64,000 nucleotides of DNA from Eledone cirrhosa. Lineage: Eukaryota. Made by a program: the position numbers and the translations under genes. Positions within the stretch are counted from its first letter, which is position 1. The number at the start of each line of letters is the position of its first letter. Under the pieces are notes generated by a model. The model had not been told where the DNA came from, made no database searches, and saw nothing but the letters and a program-made list of their open reading frames with translations. The stretch is taken from assembly GCA_964016885.1 (NCBI GenBank), contig OZ024746.1:67208001-67272000 (forward strand), given 5' to 3'. Positions 301-49,800 of the stretch are shown one piece after another.

Positions 301-3300
301 AATCTTGAGGTCCTTATGAATGGCACTAATTGATTTTCTGGGGTCCTTATTGAAACTTTTAGAATTTGTAGGACATTGGCTGCTAAACGTTATACGTTAC
401 TTTGACTATATGATAGTAAATTTCATTTAAGTTTTAGTCTTTAAATATTAATTAACATCATGCGTAAACATGGTACTAATGCATATGGCATTAATTGCAT
501 CGGATTTATTTTGAAGTAATTTCCCCAAAATTATTATCCATGGGAAAAAAAGGTGGCATAGAAATACTCATTAATTTAATTTTGTCGAATTCAGTTTAAA
601 AAATATGGTTGAATTAAATTTCTAGTCAAATTTTCGTTTTTAATTCCTCCATTCAAAATTGGTCTCAATTATGGAAATTAACATGCGTTAGAACATCTAT
701 TGGGGCTGCGTTCTCTCTTTAATAATTTTGTTTAAGTATTCTCAAATTTTTACACATAATTAAAAATGAAGGAGTAATTGAAGTCAGCATCTCACCACGA
801 AATCCGTATTCTGAATCAGTGACAAACAAGAAACTTAAAACAAAATGATGTCAAATGTTATTAATGAACACATCAATGAACGCCTGAAACTTTAAGTATA
901 GAAATAGGTTAGAGCTGGAAATAAGCAACCAACCAGATTACTACAAGAAATGTTGTCACTTTGTGTTGTTTGTCTTTATGCAGAATGCATGGAATGAAAG
1001 TAATAGAGAAAAAAGCAAAAAGAGAGTAAGACAAGAAGAAAAACATGATAGGTCAGGAGAACAGCTAGAATGAGCGGAACTGATTATAGCTTGCAGTAAA
1101 AGGCATTAGCTTCACAAATTCAATTTATGATTGATTCACTTACAGACACTATTATGCCGCCGGAAAAAATTGTTAAAACAACATTTTTTATCAAATTTTC
1201 TACATCCTATAGTTCAAGCACGATCTACTTCACGAGAAAAAATACATGTACAATGTTACGTGTAAATCTAACAGGTAATGTCTTTCTTTAAAAAAACATT
1301 ATTCTGTATGTGAGTGCGATAGCATACATATACACGACATTTTGGGTGGGTTATATAAAACAACTAACGTCCTTAAACGTCATATATTCATTTATAACAA
1401 ACGGGAGCAACAAAGAGTCTAAAATATATTCAACTTATTACACAACCATAATTGGTGGTTAAAAGCACTTTAGTGTAATCTTTCAATGTGCTCATCACAT
1501 ATACGAGGGATCCAGGGTTCAAGTCAAGTATACGCTTCTATCGACTTTGTACCTTCTCGATGAGTATTTTATCTGACTTATCTAACTACTATTTATAGTT
1601 ATCAAATATTTATTATGGTTGTCTGTATTGTGTCTTTACTAACAATAACCGCCATACACCACACCTCATAAAAATTACGCATTCTTTGCTGCTTTCCTGA
1701 TATACAGCGTTTCAGAAAATATGGAACACCATCTTTTTGATTACATTTCATCAAAATCTGCTTGATATTGTATGACCTGGGACTAATAAATATCAAGAGG
1801 AGACATTAATAAAACGATATTCATGTTATTTAGAAAGGAAAGAAACATAAAAAGCTTAGGCAAGGAAGGGGAAATTTGCGGTTTTAAAAAAGGAATCTTC
1901 GATAATTGAGATGAAGAAGATATAATAGGAAGCATGTAATATTCACTAAGTCTCAAATTAGCATTAACTAATTTCTTTTTTGCCTCTAAATTCCACTCTA
2001 TAATCCATACTGTTAGCTATGCTTTGAAATTGTAAAGAAAAGTTTATATCTTTATCGACTGAGTAGAATAACTAGCCCTAACGTCGCTCAATATTATTAT
2101 TGGTTTAGAAAATCTAATTTATTTTCTCTCCCTTTTGATGTAGATCTCAAATCAGATTGCTATCAAAAGTTCTTCATTCAGTGTGTGCCTGTGTATGTGT
2201 GTGTGTATGTGAATGTGTGAGTGTGTATGTGTGTGAGAGAGAGAGTGGGAGGGGGTGTTCTTTTTCAATATATACTCTTCTCTTTGTACTTTTGTCTGGT
2301 TTAGTATTTCGCTAATGTAAAATCAAGTAAATCTATTATATGAATTAAATCCAATTAGCAATTACACTTCTCACTATTTTACATTTTATTGATATTTTCT
2401 TCAGATTTTATTCAGCGTTGATAGATTTTCTTTTGGGGATCTGTTGTGCTTAACATTGTTCTGCAGTTTTATTTCTATAAATTATACGTTTATTTCTTTG
2501 CTTGAGACTGTCATTTTATTTGCCGATACATACACACACATACACATATGATAATGCTACTCCGTTAAGTCATACATTGATACTGAATGTACCCTACATA
2601 TCTATTACTTGGAGGAATGATTAGGGACGTTATTTGTAAAAGTGAGCGTAATCAGAAATATTTAGAACACTGTGTAAGAGATTTAAGAACAATACGGTCC
2701 ATTCTATTAATGACATAGAAATGCAGCTATATGTATAAATTGTTACCGTAATGCAACAGTTCACCAATCAAAAGATTAAGATCACATCCTGCAAGATTTG
2801 AACGATTTACTGAATCTTACATTATCTTTCGTGTGAACTGAAGAAATCGACGGAAATGTGGTTTCAGTTCTTTTGTATCATTCATCCATGTAATGTATAA
2901 GTAATGTGTCAGAGATCTTGTTTAAATTTCAAGTTTGCCTTTCAGTTACAACTATTATAGCTAACATGTATCTTTCGGAACAATGAGTCGGTATTAAGAA
3001 ATTTAAATTTAATATTCATTCCCATCAATTGAATCGTATCATAATCATACGAAGTTTCAACGATATTAGCTTTGATTTTGCATCAGTATAAACTTCAAAC
3101 AATTCGAAACGTTCACGGTGAAAGCTAATTTACATATGACAGTACATTTTAATGATTAACATTTGCACAACAGTGTTTTTATTCATCAATTATCTCATAT
3201 CAAAGAACAGGACAAAACTTCTATATTAACGTCGAATTAATTCCAAATAAACGCAAGCTATAATATTAGTGTAGAAGAAAGCATCTAATTTTGAGTAGCG

Positions 3301-41865: not shown

Positions 41866-42098
41866 TATAGGAAAATGTTTAACCCCGACGGCAGAGCTCA
41901 AGCCGTTTCGACGGCTATTTATTGACTATTTATGGTGCGTTATCGTCCATCTGGCTCATTACCACAACTAACCGAAACGGCTTTAGCACTGCCGTCGGAG
42001 TTAAACATGTTCCTATTACCCACTCTACTACCCTAAGTATTGAGTACTCTGGTGCGTTATGGTCCATCTGGTTCCTTACCACACCTCCTTCGTTATTT
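41866..42098 (+). mobile_element. Family A fold-back end with an extra internal tail fragment
   Basis: Inverted arm 41866-41920, a partial tail copy 41933-41967, then the GAAA-stem III-GTC half and full tail. Confidence 0.75.
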
Positions 42099-42676
42099 AT
42101 ATATATATATATATATATGTGTATATATATATTTATATATATATATAAATATATCACACACTCATAGATATACATGTTTTTATGTGTATATGTATATATG
42201 TGTCCTTGTGTATGTGTGTTTGTTAGTGTTGAAGATACTGTTCAGTTTCAATTATTCCTTAATGTCATTGCTTTTGGTTCGGAATAGCAGTGTTTCTACT
42301 GTCTGATCATCAGATGTATCGTTGTTATATCTTAGTCCTTCCTTTCTTATAGGCATCTGTATTTCCTGGTGTAACATGCAGTTTTTATTTCACCTTAACA
42401 CTAAGCCTCTCTAAGTTAAGTTTGAATCTTACAGCTGGCCGTTAGACTCACACATCACAAGTCAAGTTTTCAATCTATTGTATATATGACGCCTTTGGCA
42501 GGCAACATCCTAGATATTGACCTTGACGCATAGTATTGCTTCCTTCTGTGATTAAAATCACACTTTTGTTCAGGATTCTGTATAATACAAAGGTATTATG
42601 CTTTAATGTTCTCCTAACTGTATAAACACACACCTAAAATGCATTATATCTAGAGCTATCCCTCTATCTATCTAAC

Positions 42677-42892
<216 letters not shown>

Positions 42893-42901
42893 CATATATA
42901 T

Positions 42902-42951
<50 letters not shown>

Positions 42952-43085
42952 ATATATACATATATATATATATAATATATACTTATCAAATATTATGTAT
43001 AGCTGCTTCCCACACGGCTAACGTATTTTCAAATTACCCTAACACTTGGTAATTTAAGAAAGGTATACACACACACACACACATG

Positions 43086-43152
<67 letters not shown>

Positions 43153-43677
43153 CCTGGCAATTACCCGCTGTTTCATGGCAATAATTCTAATTCTTCAGTT
43201 AGATAACACGCAAGATGTCCGCTGGGCACACAATAAGCTAATAAGTACAGACTCTTTAATATGGAGTAGTCAAATATTTACCATACCTCTCATTTTCAGG
43301 TAAACATTTCTCTTTTGTGTTTAAGGAATCTGTATTGGTAGTATGACGTTCTTAGTTCGAGGTTATCCGAATATCCACCTCCAAAAAGGGGTATCTTAAT
43401 CAGCTGACTAAACGTAAAGTGGAATAATTTCAGACCATCTTTTATTCTAAATTTATTTTATTCCTTGTCATATGTTACTGCTCTTGCGAAATATTGACGT
43501 CATTTAAATATATTAAAGTATTAATCTCAACAGCACAATATACTCTGTCTTATTATTATTACCCATATTGAGTTCTTTGACTAATCCTGATATTTTCAAT
43601 CAGAATATCGAATTATAATACATTCACAAACACACAGATATGTATATATGTATGCATAAATATATATATATATATAT

Positions 43678-43776
<99 letters not shown>

Positions 43777-43789
43777 TATATATATATGT

Positions 43790-43975
43790 ATAGGTCGGTA
43801 AAGATATCCAAAGCTTAGAGAAACGCAAGTCCGTAGGGCGAGTTTAATATAACTATTAGGGCTAGTTACTACAACGGCGCCATACCAGTTACGTACGTTT
43901 CGTTAGACCTGCGGACTACTACCGAAACGCACATATATGGAATGGCACCGTTATATTACCTGGCCTTAAGATTTA
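43790..43975 (-). mobile_element. Fold-back unit (family L) with an HHR 3' half
   Basis: Imperfect arms ~43855-43902 and ~43923-43972; minus strand c GAAA c-gtac-g TA actgg. Confidence 0.5.
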
Positions 43976-44174
43976 TATATATATATATATATATTATTTA
44001 AGGCCAGTTTCTCGATATGAATACCCCCTCCGCCTCCGTGGTATTTTCTTCGTGGTTATAAGAGGCTTAGCTCTGTTTCTCGACCGTTATATCGCGTGAC
44101 TATCTCCCCCTCCGCCTTTTGGGATTCTTTCTCACGTCGTGTAGACGCGTTCTTGAGACTAGTAAAATGAGGTA

Positions 44175-44262
44175 TCCTCTTGATAAGTTGGCAGACCTCG
44201 CAAGGACTCTATATCTTTGATATATTGTTTTTGTTTATGCCACGAAACTACGTAGTCGAGGA
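44175..44262 (+). ncRNA. Type-I hammerhead ribozyme, U3-A8 core variant
   Basis: tcctc TTGATAA g-t-tggca...tgcca-c GAAA cta-cg-tag TC gagga; predicted cleavage after 44257. Confidence 0.8.
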
Positions 44263-44765
44263 ATTTAGGAACAGTTTAGGTATGATACATTTTATTACTA
44301 ATTATATCTAAATGTTTCTTCTCTCTTCATAATGTATTTTTAACTCTGATACTGGTTCAGTCTGGTTCAAACTGAATTGGTCTGTCCCAGTCATTCATTG
44401 AGCAACATCGGTGAAGTTGGCACCCTTAACTCACAGTTGGGTGCGGATGCATTCATGTATATATGTGTGTGTCCGCATGTATCTGTGTGTTTTTAAATAT
44501 ATTAATAACTCCCTCTGGTCGAGCAATCTTTGAAGTGTGGGGACAACTGGAAAGCTTCCATTACTCATACTTCTCGCCTTCTTCACTACCTCTTCTACGG
44601 CCTCGATATGAATACCCCCTCCGCCTCCGTGGTATTTTCTTCGTGGTTATAAGAGGCTTAGCTCTGTTTCTCGACCGTTATATCGCGTGACTATCTCCCC
44701 CTCCGCCTTTTGGGATTCTTTCTCACGTCGTGTAGACGCGTTCTTGAGACTAGTAAAATGAGGTA

Positions 44766-44853
44766 TCCTCTTGATAAGTTGGCAGACCTCGCAAGGACTC
44801 TATATCTTTGATATATTGTTTTTGTTTATGCCACGAAACTACGTAGTCGAGGA
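44766..44853 (+). ncRNA. Second identical U3-A8 hammerhead ribozyme
   Basis: Same sequence as 44175-44262; predicted cleavage after 44848. Confidence 0.8.
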
Positions 44854-44922
44854 ATTTAGGAACAGTTTAGGTATGATACATTTTATTACTAATTATATCT
44901 AAATGTTTCTTCTCTCTTCATA

Positions 44923-44968
<46 letters not shown>

Positions 44969-44974
44969 TAAGGC

Positions 44975-45025
<51 letters not shown>

Positions 45026-45851
45026 AGACACTGCGTATCCTAGCCTTGATACATGAATGCACCAGCGTGTGTATGTAAGTGCTTATTTGTATGTGCATAG
45101 TATTTTGTTTTCTAAATATACTTACTAAAGGGAAAATAAAATAATTTTGCGGAGAAACTTTTTGCCGGAAATTGCTTGATGGTAAACATAGCGCCAGTTC
45201 CCGGTATATTGCAATAATCATTTGTTAAATAACACCTGCGAATCTTTCTAAATTTCAATAAAATATGAATCCAGCCACAATAATGTGAGACACTTTGTTT
45301 ATAGACATAGCATGACTGTGTACCTGTCTTCCGGTGGAATGTCTTACACTTTGTTCCCTATATATATAGACAGTTGATTTAACGCCATTAGGGAAGACCA
45401 AACGCTTTAGAAATAGGAACTAACTGTTAGACTGTACGACCTTCGCTAGATATAGACGACTGAGTGTGTTTATATATGCAAAAGAAATGATGTTATATAC
45501 AGTATAGAGGAAGTATAATTAAACTTGAACGATTTTTATGAAAGCATCTCAATTATCTTCTTCTTATTAATCTTCTTCTTCTTAAGTGAATCGTGGGGCC
45601 TGTCAGAGCAACCATCTCCAACTGGTCCGTCTGGATCGTTATTCAGAGAAAACCTATTTCTGCCGATCTATGGTCAAGTTCCATGACCATAGATAAGGGC
45701 TGGAAATTATTTTACAAATTTATAGACGAACTCATGGCTTAGCTATAGTAATACTGAAAGTTTCTAGTATATACAATAGAAAGAAAACATTTGTTGATCA
45801 TTTGCAGTCTGTAATTTGATGTTTATAAATATATATATATATATATATATA

Positions 45852-45914
<63 letters not shown>

Positions 45915-46363
45915 GGGGGGATATGGAGATGGAGGAGGGAGGGAGATGTACATATAGATATAGACATGTGAGTATATTTATATTCGTGTCTGAGATGTTA
46001 ATACATTTCTTTAAGTCAAGTAGCATTTCAATTGCACAAATAGAAATTGATAACAAAACCATAAGTACTGAGGGTGATTGATTAAACGCCCGAATGTGGT
46101 TTTCTAGCATAGCCACAATCCCATTATTATTATTACACCAGAGCCTTCCTTCTAAAATGATGTCCTAACAAGAACTAGGGGTCTCTTATTTCCGGCGAGC
46201 AGCTAACCGTGTATGCGGGTACCAAAACGAGTATTTAGATATCCCAACACATACATACATACATACATACATACATACATACATACATACATACATACAT
46301 ACATACATACATACATACATACATACATGCATACATACATACATACATACATACATACATACA

Positions 46364-46822
46364 TGGAACCTGAAAATAATAGCTGCCACCAAATTAAAGC
46401 ACAACCGGCCTGATATTGTTGTTTGGGACCACACATTGAAAACGGGCTCTGTTGTAGAGATCAGCTGCCCACTCGATGTCAACGTTGTAAGAAAAATAGA
46501 AGAGAAGGAGGACATCTATGGACATATATGGGGATTTTGCATATCCAGTATCCAAGATACACCTTCAGCTTCATACCCATCATTATTGGAGCTACAAGTT
46601 ATATACCAACCCGATTGGACCAAAGTATGACTGAACTTGGATTTGTGGACAAAGAGCGTAGCTCCCTAATTCATAGACTACAAAGGGCTGCGCTAGCTGG
46701 CACCTTCAAATTTTGCAAAACATTCTTGCGATTCAAAGGATGACAATTTCTTTTCTTTTTCAACCTTGTCACCAGGAAGGTGGCCGGTCAAAAATGTACC
46801 CGAAATTAAGAGAAAGAGAAAC
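46364..46822 (+). mobile_element. R4/Dong-like non-LTR retrotransposon 3' end (restriction-like endonuclease) within (CATA)n
   Basis: WNLKIIAATKLKHNRPDIVVWD...VVEISCPLDVN...EEKEDIYG, frameshift, then FIPIIIGA...LQRAALAGTFKFCKTFL*; ~115 bp of (CATA)n 5' and ACATACAT 3'. Confidence 0.8.
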
Positions 46823-49800
46823 ATACATGCATAGAGTCAAGGTCGGGAAAATAATTCCATTTTAAAGATCAACATTTACAAACATGGAAACATGGAATTG
46901 ATTCTAGTAATAATGTGGAACAGAACGAGTGCTACCTTGCATGAAGATGATCTACGTGGCAGAACATGTGATCAAAAACTATGCATCTCTATCTGATGTG
47001 TTTGTCCTTATATTGCATAAAGTATTTTTAAACCTTGGTTCTATATATCTTATTTGTGTATCCACACGCGTTATTTTTTTTCCCCCTTTTTTTTTTTTTT
47101 TTTGAACACATGTGTAACATGTTTTAGCATGAATGAATGGTCATTCGTGACAATAATTTTGTTTTATTAATATGATTTTTGATATTGTTTATTTTCTTTT
47201 TCTTTCTTTTTTTTTTCATCAATGCAACCGTTGCAACTTTTAATTTCATCTTATAAACTTTATATTCTTTATTCTTACTAGAAATCAATTCTATCGCAAA
47301 TAGATTATCCTTCAAAACGTCAATAGTTTGTATCCTTGTAGCATTAACAGTGTTGCGCTCTATGCATAGATAATGATGGACCGGTGTTCAACAAACTATA
47401 AATATGTTCTTGTTCTCGCTGCTGCTGATGCTGCTTAACTGTAGGTCATGTTTGATCTAAGGCTTACAAACCTTGATAAACCCATTCTTTTTTTATAAGA
47501 TAGAGTGTATCTAACACATCATTATGCAATGTGTCCTTTCCTTTTTCTAAAATACATTTTTTTACAGATACCATAGTGTGCTTTATGGAAACTTTGTCCG
47601 CTACCATTTACAGGTCGAGTGATTCTATATGGATGTACAATCAACTCTTCTCGGCAGTGAATGATCTGTAGAATTAATCAGTGTTTCGTTAACTTAATTG
47701 CTGACATCAAATATAGTACTCCTGTTAAGCAAAGCCCTAAACGGATCATTTAATTCTACCATGGTTGGTAGTTTTGTTCTCTCTCACTCGTTTTAATTTT
47801 CAGTTATTTCTTTCACTTTGAATTTTCGCCATGTACTCCAGCATTCCTTCGTTCTTCCATGTTCTGTGTCTATCTTCGTTATTTTTTTCTTTTATCTGTT
47901 CGTTTTTCTCAAGATTTATTCCCATCATTAACCTTCATATATTATTACTAATATAGTTTTTTTCTCATTTTTATTCCTTTCCAGCTTTTCATATTTTATT
48001 TTCGATTTCTCGTACCTTACTCATCATACTAACTTCATACTTATTTCTTGTATTTTCCATTTTTTGCAATCATTTTTTTTTTATGTAAAGTTATTTCCAT
48101 ATGAAAATTTCTAATGATTATTTCCCATCTAGCTTATATTTTATTTTACATCAACTTATATCTTTATTCCAAAGATTGATTTCTTTTTTATCATTGCAAT
48201 CTTATCTATTTCCGAAACCAAGTTCTACTTTGTCAATCGTAAAATGATATATCACGGATAGTATTATCAACTGTTTACTGTTATCAAATATAGTAGCTCC
48301 CAACATCTTAATGTTCTTAATGACATCAGCCAGGTATTGATATCGAGATTTACTCTCAAGTTTATCATGATAAAGAGTTACTACTGTATTTCCTGTCGAA
48401 AAACAAAACCAGTTTCAATACGTAATATTTTCAAAAGCAGTTCTTTATGAATCAGAGAATTAATGGAATCATCTGAGCGTTCTGATGACTGGTTTCATAT
48501 TTTCAGATCTTCTTTTCCAATGATCGGGAGCCAATTAAATAAATAAGAACAATATATTGAAGGAGGTTCCGCCTATCTTGTCTATCATTGAATATGGAAT
48601 CATAGACTTAGCTAAACATGATATTTCATTAAAGAGGGTAAAAACAATTTCTTTAGAGTGTCTATTAATGTTTAACGTAGGTCAACTCTAGATGAGTAGG
48701 TCTCAGATGAAAGGCATCCCAATGATTACAACATCATGACAACATCTTCAGATTACAGAATGTGTTGTAAGTCAGATTCGGCAGCTATTTATCTCTGGCG
48801 TAATATGTAGAGACGCCATGCTTGGCCAGTTATTCCCGCCATAGCTACACTTCAATCCAACATTTATGACTGAAGACGATATAATCTTGATCTTCTCCTG
48901 TTATATTATGTCATTAAGTTCTGTTAAAGGATGCATTTCTGATGGTGTAGATTCTATCTTTATTAGGCGGATCTTGGTATTATTATTATTTTTTTTTTTT
49001 TTTGGTGATGCTGCTGTAATTTTAACTAAATAGAAGTAATGGTGGGCAATATTTTTGTATGTGAAGGGCGATTGTGCATATCTTATTATTTATTAAGTCA
49101 TTGATTGACTTATCGTATTGCACTTTGATAAAACAGCTGTATATATTTGTTCTAGATAAATCTACCTCCGTCGTTTTCGACTTTACGTGTTCTTGTTGTT
49201 CGCAAAATGCGATAGCTTTACACATTAAATTTAACGCGAAAGTGGCTAAGTAATTTACAGATACGGCTAACCTATACATTATTCTCAATGAGAATCAGCT
49301 GACAGAGTGTATTACAGGGGCTTTCAAATAGATTTCACTTACTTCATTTCACTTACCTACGAAGCTATGGTAAATAACATTTGCACAAAATTCCACGCAG
49401 AGCGAGTACGTGGGAATATTAATGATAGTGAAACCAAATATGGAACCACATCCCCATATGTGTTCTATCAGAAATACAATACATTCTGATGTAAATAGGT
49501 TCTGACACATAATTTGATCTATGATATTCTCTATATCTATGTATTTTAGTGTAATAATTTATATGTAGATAAAATGTATATTAAATAGCTCATATATAAA
49601 TACTAAATATTTCTAGAATATATTTTTAAGTATTTTTTCATTAGATCACACTGTGTATCGCTAAGTTATGGACAATCCCTACAAGTGATAATGGCTTGGG
49701 AAATAATATAAAATTTATCGATGAAATATTGAGAAATTATCGAGAAAACGTTTACTACATGGCTACCCAATTATAGATAAGGCTGAAAGCTTTTGTTCTA

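Follow-up and report, generated by a model that had tools for sequence, protein, structure and literature searches.

A young non-coding retrozyme in Eledone cirrhosa, likely inserted by a Penelope-like protein and probably copied from circular RNA

Introduction

The window analyzed here is a 64,000-nucleotide stretch (G000:C6:67208001-67272000) of a 3.0-Gb assembly, in which two hammerhead motifs lie in identical repeats bordered by TA runs. This arrangement raises the question of what kind of element the locus represents and of which machinery copied it into its target. We read it as a 1.55-unit copy of a young non-coding retrozyme. A Penelope-like element (PLE) likely supplied the RT/GIY-YIG protein that inserted it, and the copy was probably made from a circular RNA; taken as a whole, this account seems to us moderately probable.

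Results

Structure of the window locus

Inspection of the window reveals an exact direct repeat, X, in which 44011-44337 equals 44602-44928 (327 bp, 100% identity, offset 591; Table 1). The tandem unit is non-coding, with a GC content of 41% and a longest ATG ORF of 75 aa. At its 3' end the copy fuses with TA at AATGTAT (44928), and among the architectures of its family it is the single-arm, short-ended form. A 17-mer is present at 43994-44010 and 44964-44980 with a TA run preceding each copy, and together with its right-hand context it has one match in the 3.0-Gb genome, the window locus itself; the 17-mer is therefore duplicated host DNA. Across 134 insertions examined, a junction-adjacent, non-microsatellite target duplication was found once (1/134, the window locus), where a duplication lying wholly inside pure TA would be invisible at the other insertions. 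The original prediction thus holds for the identical repeats with hammerheads, for the lack of a credible ORF, for a duplicated target, which proves specific to this locus among the 134, and for a 3' end that merges into TA, a property shared by 200/204 arm 3' ends across the family.

Several further observations concern the surroundings of the insertion. A 10-bp inverted repeat (43960-43969 / 43998-44007) flanks the TA target; longer inverted flanks surround the target in 6/134 family insertions versus 0.4% of shuffled flank pairs, and palindromes centred on TA are common among the loci fetched. The window copy differs from most of the family at 44189, the helix II bulged base, and at 44493, positions that mark a young subfamily. 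Pfam returned no family for seven plus three further window ORFs and no match for the fragment at 46169-46743. This fragment, broken up by a (TACA)n run, seems to resemble the restriction-like endonuclease region at the C terminus of a LINE. With ARAGORN, the interval 43000-46000 yielded no tRNA gene.

Table 1. Positions of the insertion and its parts within the window.
Feature	Positions	Strand	Comment
Target-site duplication, left copy, host DNA	43994..44010	+	17 bp plus up to ~20 bp of the TA run 43974-43994
Retrozyme insertion, single-arm, 1.55 tandem units, 918 bp	44011..44928	+	5'-truncated at unit position 1; 3' end is the short start site
Full 591-bp unit as phased here, non-coding	44011..44601	+	X 44011-44337 plus Y 44338-44601
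Type I hammerhead 1	44175..44262	+	Motif and fold; predicted cleavage after 44257
Type I hammerhead 2, identical to hammerhead 1	44766..44853	+	Predicted cleavage after 44848
Predicted 591-nt unit-length RNA between cleavage sites	44258..44848	+	Fold z = -6.9; putative circularisation
Short start site, internal copy, AATGTAT, unit position 327	44331..44337	+	80 nt past the cleavage site; follows a long predicted hairpin on its 3' side
Long start site, unit positions 492-494	44495..44504	+	245 nt past the cleavage site; internal here, the second arm's TA-fused end elsewhere
165-nt stretch separating the two start sites	44338..44502	+	Equivalent of the Penelope 'tail' (PMC11167929)
3' junction: short start site joined to TA target run	44922..44963	+	Sequence
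Target-site duplication, right copy, then second TA run	44964..44980	+	Sequence

Twin hammerheads and their fold

The U3-A8 core, palindromic stem III and GUC site that had been predicted are read in both motifs, while the stem II described as branched turns out to be a long bulged hairpin. In hammerhead 1, helix I pairs UCCUC (44175-44179) with GAGGA (44258-44262), the core UUGAUAA spans 44180-44186, and helix II occupies the 57 nt from 44187 to 44243; GAAA (44244-44247) and the palindromic helix III ACUACGUAGU (44247-44256) then lead to the GUC site, with C17 at 44257. Hammerhead 2 lies 591 bp downstream, with C17 at 44848. Position labels such as U3-A8 and C17 follow hammerhead numbering.

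The active monomer is predicted to fold at -21.5 kcal/mol, compared with an MFE of -23.1, and a 10-bp duplex of two palindromes at -12.9 kcal/mol, values consistent with the dimeric mode that PMC4209133 reports for motifs of this kind. The structure is not attributable to chance: for the 591-nt unit the fold gives z = -6.9, with 0/100 shuffles equally stable. Helices I and III and the base of helix II are invariant in 17 copies from two families that are 71% identical. Changes in the helix II extension of the same 17 copies mostly preserve pairing (99.1% of 440 cells), with seven pairs varying on one side and one on both, and a covariation control was not significant, its score being reached in 34/500 shuffles. 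Transmitted variants are fewer in hammerhead columns (2/43 versus 88/548, p = 0.046), and single-copy variants show no deficit there.

Scanning 42000-47000 against Rfam produced AT-repeat artefacts and a weak mir-268 match, and nothing for a hammerhead at E<=1. A genome search for a relative with a short helix II and a pattern scan of metagenomes each returned 0 matches. A different hammerhead-like motif, with a canonical C3-G8 core, a long helix II and an 8-nt palindromic helix III, is present at L243:743-830, and further C3-G8 motifs occur at L136, L141, L145, L232 and L253.

A large young family with two fixed 3' ends

A genome search with one unit yielded 522 candidates, and the 40 that were scored are full-length units 99-100% identical, many of them in tandem and on many contigs. 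Exact TA junctions were found 1,897 times at a short end (unit position 327) and 1,694 times at a long end (unit positions 492-494), with 0 matches for the reversed-pattern control in each case; from these junction counts we estimate 2,000-3,000 insertions. Exact matches to the ribozyme's 3' half number 7,444 across the genome, with the 591-nt and sister families pooled. The recent, non-autonomous, hammerhead-bearing retroelement of 1.55 units that had been predicted is supported, and the search for other copies with permuted ends, which the prediction had named as a check, found many, the 204 arm 5' ends being spread around the unit.

To describe insertion architecture, 141 loci were mapped and one (L059) was dropped as a near-duplicate of L058. 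The remaining 140 comprise 36 best matches, 68 loci with an exact short junction and 36 with an exact long junction lacking an exact short partner; selection by junction fixes one end and leaves the other free. Overlapping or truncated search loci, L051 and L081-L100 stood outside this count. Seventy loci consist of two arms head-to-head and 64 of a single arm, with four cut by the locus edge and two complex. Inspection of the end pairs in the 70 two-arm loci indicates a striking regularity, in that 68 join a short to a long end, two a long to an irregular end, and none like to like. A later refetch resolved three edge loci and one new locus as short plus long and one as single, and three loci scored as single conceal an inverted long arm of 26-50 nt. 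Among resolved short-selected loci 35/62 are two-arm, and about 60% of family insertions have two head-to-head arms. Counts along C1:1-132.4 Mb (100 short and 84 long junctions) agree, with 33 divergent short-long pairs and 0 short-short or long-long pairs; under independent ends the probability of such pairing is ~1e-10. This pairing of two fixed 3' ends is not visible from the window alone.

The arms are pure tandem units of up to 4,443 nt, reaching 7.5 units at L227, where the array has no mismatch between units. At least two cleavage sites lie in one arm in 45/98 junction-selected insertions, and arms in this set cross up to 5 cleavage sites. Arm-arm junctions (n=70) show an overlap of 0-14 nt in 59 cases and 1-20 extra bases in 11. 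The 5' ends (n=204) cluster slightly around unit positions 1-60 and 420-450, with 4 near the cleavage site versus 3.1 expected; linear cleaved monomers were accordingly rejected as templates. We likewise rejected unit position 1 as a fixed transcript start, which holds 8/204 5' ends versus 3.1 expected and does not exceed positions 27, 57 or 423. Arm lengths deviate from a pure exponential (p = 0.026), with few arms above 1,200 nt, in part owing to the cutting off of long arms in small loci.

A sister family is older and has a unit of 590 nt that is 71% identical, with 1,818 search candidates and a reference locus at L247:1752-2342. It shares the core, helix I, helix II base and helix III of the 591-nt family, and its ends lie 81 and 247 nt past the cleavage site. 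Two arms are present at 18/23 distinct loci, with 16 short plus long, one long plus long (L247) and one irregular. A sister variant with a 508-bp period occurs at L243. Nesting in TA tracts was seen: at L055 the retrozyme adjoins the sister family, and at L126 it lies downstream of a GIY-YIG ORF. L192, considered as a retrozyme/PLE chimera, reads instead as a nested insertion at an older PLE short end and was left out of the evidence.

Sequencing runs provide side observations. Contigs of run X3 have loose TA ends at both fixed places, where X3 may be the assembly's source and not independent of it. A near-identical unit appears in runs labelled as 17 coded organisms, at low depth in X2, X9 and X14; over 44011-44601, three of the four runs examined have a depth of 3-105, compared with ~400,000 in X3. 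The low-depth unit in other organisms' runs may reflect carry-over, mixed samples or close relatives, and as low depth could equal carry-over or mixed samples, horizontal transfer is not claimed.

Both arms usually derive from one haplotype

Variant calls within insertions fall into 306 present in all copies, 175 in one copy and six that are partial. Sixteen variants are private to one insertion yet present in all its copies; eight of these span both arms, and three are present in three or more copies, up to 4/4 copies across both arms. Such insertion-private variants indicate a bottleneck of one unit, and both arms usually derive from one haplotype. Uniform units would also be expected from young homogeneous source arrays. 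The six partial variants, found in four insertions, do not fit a monomeric circle: at L161 and L213 the first unit of the long arm matches the second unit of the short arm, and partial variants also occur at L159 and L195.

Resident Penelope-like elements as candidate partners

The genome holds 10,597 GIY-YIG candidates, and 50 loci were examined. Among them are several families with RT, a C-terminal GIY-YIG domain and a Cys-rich linker, which appear Neptune-like when read against the description in PMC8557442. One young autonomous PLE (L131:773-6122; G000:C1:145869000-145877500) has an intact 938-aa frame with RVT_1 and GIY-YIG; the homologues of the PLE protein that carry a name come from bivalves and are 46-48% identical. 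Its family carries a U3-A8 hammerhead with palindromic helix III and has TA-fused ends 76 and ~141 nt past the cleavage site, with 3,013 short and 6,670 long TA junctions. In C1:1-51.6 Mb, which has 49 short and 100 long junctions, neighbouring divergent pairs no more than 3 kb apart comprise 27 short-long, one long-long and no short-short, and within 8 kb 28, two and none, respectively. A second PLE family shows one-of-each ends at one locus (L144). Many insertions of the L131 family are tiny two-arm palindromes of ~130-360 bp (L262-L266) that could be mistaken for MITEs.

No homology between the retrozyme unit and 50 of the 10,597 GIY-YIG loci was detected by blastn, and tblastn found no PLE ORF in the window. 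Close to the junction, the 5' flanks of the 64 single-arm copies share no sequence. What ties the retrozyme to PLEs is therefore common behaviour, and the (TA)n microsatellite target is common to the retrozyme and a resident RT+GIY-YIG element. Several resident PLE families are candidate partners, and mobilisation of the retrozyme by a PLE enzyme appears highly probable.

Discussion

A proposed route of insertion

In our reading, a locus such as the window copy, one arm of which holds two hammerheads, would be transcribed, and its hammerheads, probably paired through the palindromic helix III, are predicted to excise a 591-nt RNA that would be ligated into a circle. Judging from the junctions, a PLE protein would cleave both (TA)n strands, after which one target strand would prime synthesis from the short site and its partner from the long site, each through a few bases of TA microhomology. 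The two fixed ends and their one-of-each pairing are observed, and from them we infer priming on one RNA. How far each cDNA extends around the template would vary, reaching as much as 7.5 units. The two cDNAs would then be joined head-to-head, mostly via short microhomology, giving the two-arm structures observed, or one cDNA would be joined to the far target end to give a single arm, as in the window, where a staggered cut would have left the 17-bp duplication. Provided that a PLE enzyme mobilises the family, a circle is its probable template.

The strongest competitor to the circle, which we nevertheless consider unlikely, keeps the same family and the same PLE enzyme but takes an uncleaved linear multimeric array transcript as template, such that the hammerhead is dispensable and no circle is copied. 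It would accommodate the register-specific variants of L161 and L213, the partial variants of L159 and L195, and the under-representation of arms beyond about two units. Unprocessed RNA is moreover the dominant anole PLE substrate (PMC11167929), and most tested Xenopus dimers were without cleavage (bioRxiv 10.64898/2026.07.22.740005). Yet private variants shared by all copies of an insertion, up to 4/4 over both arms, need a one-unit bottleneck, and arrays reach 7.5 units without mismatch at L227. The retrozyme also lacks a 5' wall; by contrast, in five short PLE copies inspected by eye the sequence ends some tens of bases on the 5' side of the element's own hammerhead, which is what a linear RNA end would cause. 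Finally, the hammerhead has been kept across families that are 71% identical.

The remaining alternatives concern the identity of the unit and the origin of the inverted arm. That the unit is the pseudo-LTR of a longer, unsampled coding PLE, with the copies as its truncated forms, is improbable: the window has no PLE ORF, the 50 PLE loci show no homology, the single-arm 5' flanks have nothing in common next to the junction, and the arms are purely tandem units to 4.4 kb, even though the architecture and U3-A8 hammerhead are PLE-like, the comparison covered 50 of 10,597 candidates, and pseudo-LTR descent is proposed for the whole class in bioRxiv 10.64898/2026.07.22.740005. Fold-back self-priming, as in the rotifer PLE model (PMC3846280), or L1-type twin priming on linear RNA would likewise place arms head-to-head, and a few junctions are near-symmetric (L074, L079; 8/70 within 20 nt versus 4.9 expected). 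Junction-symmetry and inner-end counts largely refute both, with 62/70 junctions asymmetric and inner ends near the other arm's outer end in 8/140 cases versus 12 expected; neither accounts for two fixed outer ends paired one-of-each, and we regard this origin as very improbable. Least credible of all is an LTR retrozyme, in which X would be a true LTR moved by an LTR retrotransposon. The X-Y-X appearance of the window locus and a unit size resembling that of plant retrozymes invite this reading, but it is contradicted by the variable 5' ends, multimeric arrays and inverted arms of other copies; in addition, the ribozyme is of type I, the 3' ends are fused to TA and the duplication measures 17 bp instead of 4 bp.

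Returning to a PLE enzyme acting on a retrozyme circle, we tentatively extend the model to a two-primer PLE integration in which a dimeric enzyme may use the short and long starts of one RNA, the retrozyme circle letting both arms roll. The one-of-each pattern would then be a general PLE insertion rule, seen in three families. Such a model fits the anole PLE start sites being alike on both strands, in that either genomic arm may be short but never both. If the two-primer and circle readings are correct, the genome would preserve in these insertions the traces of rolling-circle reverse transcription on a retrozyme circle. The rule is countable, with a short end, a long end and one haplotype, and it connects genomic architecture with the two start sites that the anole PLE uses in vitro; the retrozyme obeys it without detectable homology to the PLEs sampled. 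The 591-nt RNA, a TA duplex and the intact L131 frame together offer the components of a compact in vitro system. Should circles be the templates, this would be a natural route to write circular RNA into TA repeats.

Comparison with known systems

On every feature tested the element files as a non-LTR retrozyme, judged from its letters as tandem type I hammerhead units that are non-coding, low in GC and dispersed. The label 'LTR-retrozyme-like' in the original prediction gives way to this assignment, X being a partial tandem unit, with copies to 7.5 units, starts all around the monomer and a type I ribozyme; the type III hammerhead, true LTRs and 4-bp duplication of an LTR retrozyme are absent. 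Nor is it the undescribed system that had been suggested, as non-LTR retrozymes are a described class (PMC7229834), units of 51-972 bp with a proposed PLE origin have been reported (bioRxiv 10.64898/2026.07.22.740005), and PLEs of Schistosoma have been described as carrying U3-A8 cores (PMC4209133). Like metazoan non-LTR retrozymes, it consists of non-coding tandem type I hammerhead units with GC <45% in dimers to multimers (PMC7229834; bioRxiv 10.64898/2026.07.22.740005), its duplication exceeds 4 bp when present, and PLEs co-exist with it. The 591-bp unit lies within the preprint's 51-972 bp range and above the 150-450 bp of the 2020 paper (PMC7229834). The U3-A8 core and 57-nt helix II set it apart from the metazoan retrozymes as those sources present them. 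Circular RNA has been demonstrated for coral, mussel and axolotl retrozymes, whereas the circle here is predicted; 24/57 Xenopus families have a homologous PLE pseudo-LTR, whereas none was found here among 50 loci. Eight of nine Xenopus retrozyme dimers were without in vitro cleavage, and the preprint leaves the mechanism of retrozyme mobilisation open (bioRxiv 10.64898/2026.07.22.740005).

Plant LTR retrozymes share two hammerheads ~600 nt apart and a non-autonomous nature. They differ in that their ribozyme is of type III, their LTRs are true ones, their duplication is 4 bp long and their GC is >55%, none of which applies here.

By analogy, the mode of insertion resembles that of a PLE. The retrozyme has no RT + GIY-YIG ORF of the kind that marks an autonomous PLE, and it displays the features of a PLE-mobilised element, namely a partial tandem with an inverted 5'-truncated copy, a tail at one end and a shared microsatellite target. 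Partial tandems, inverted 5'-truncated copies, one-end tails and microsatellite bias are likewise found in endonuclease-bearing PLEs (PMC8557442, PMC3846280, PMC11167929, PMC4209133), as are a hammerhead with palindromic helix III, the U3-A8 variant and two internal RT start sites; previous descriptions include inverted pseudo-LTRs of which one carries a tail (PMC3846280, PMC8557442). Given AT-rich DNA in vitro, purified anole PLE cuts both strands and extends them, starts reverse transcription at two internal sites bounding the tail, is a predicted dimer whose start site does not differ between strands, and inserts in vitro independently of hammerhead cleavage (PMC11167929). Unlike PLEs, the retrozyme has no ORF, a tail of 165 nt rather than 30-40, and long multimeric arms without a 5' wall. 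Both of its start sites have TA-like microhomology, whereas those of the anole PLE are non-homologous to the target (PMC11167929). The non-autonomous Chlamys PLEs (such as MRC1) are similar in forming pseudo-LTRs, in being multicopy and head-to-tail, and in having once been mistaken for LTR elements; these green algal elements generally resemble their autonomous partners at the 3' end and are mostly without hammerheads (PMC8557442).

In the literature within reach, with most subscription papers and Repbase outside it, we found no description of retrozyme tails, TA targeting or inverted arms, nor of a one-of-each count or haplotype sharing between arms; families with such ends may be listed in the preprint's supplements. 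The origin of tandem and inverted PLE insertions is called unresolved in PMC8557442. The class, its PLE origin, the unit sizes and the U3-A8 cores are known, and what is new and testable is a family-wide one-of-each insertion rule, which links retrozymes to PLE enzymes.
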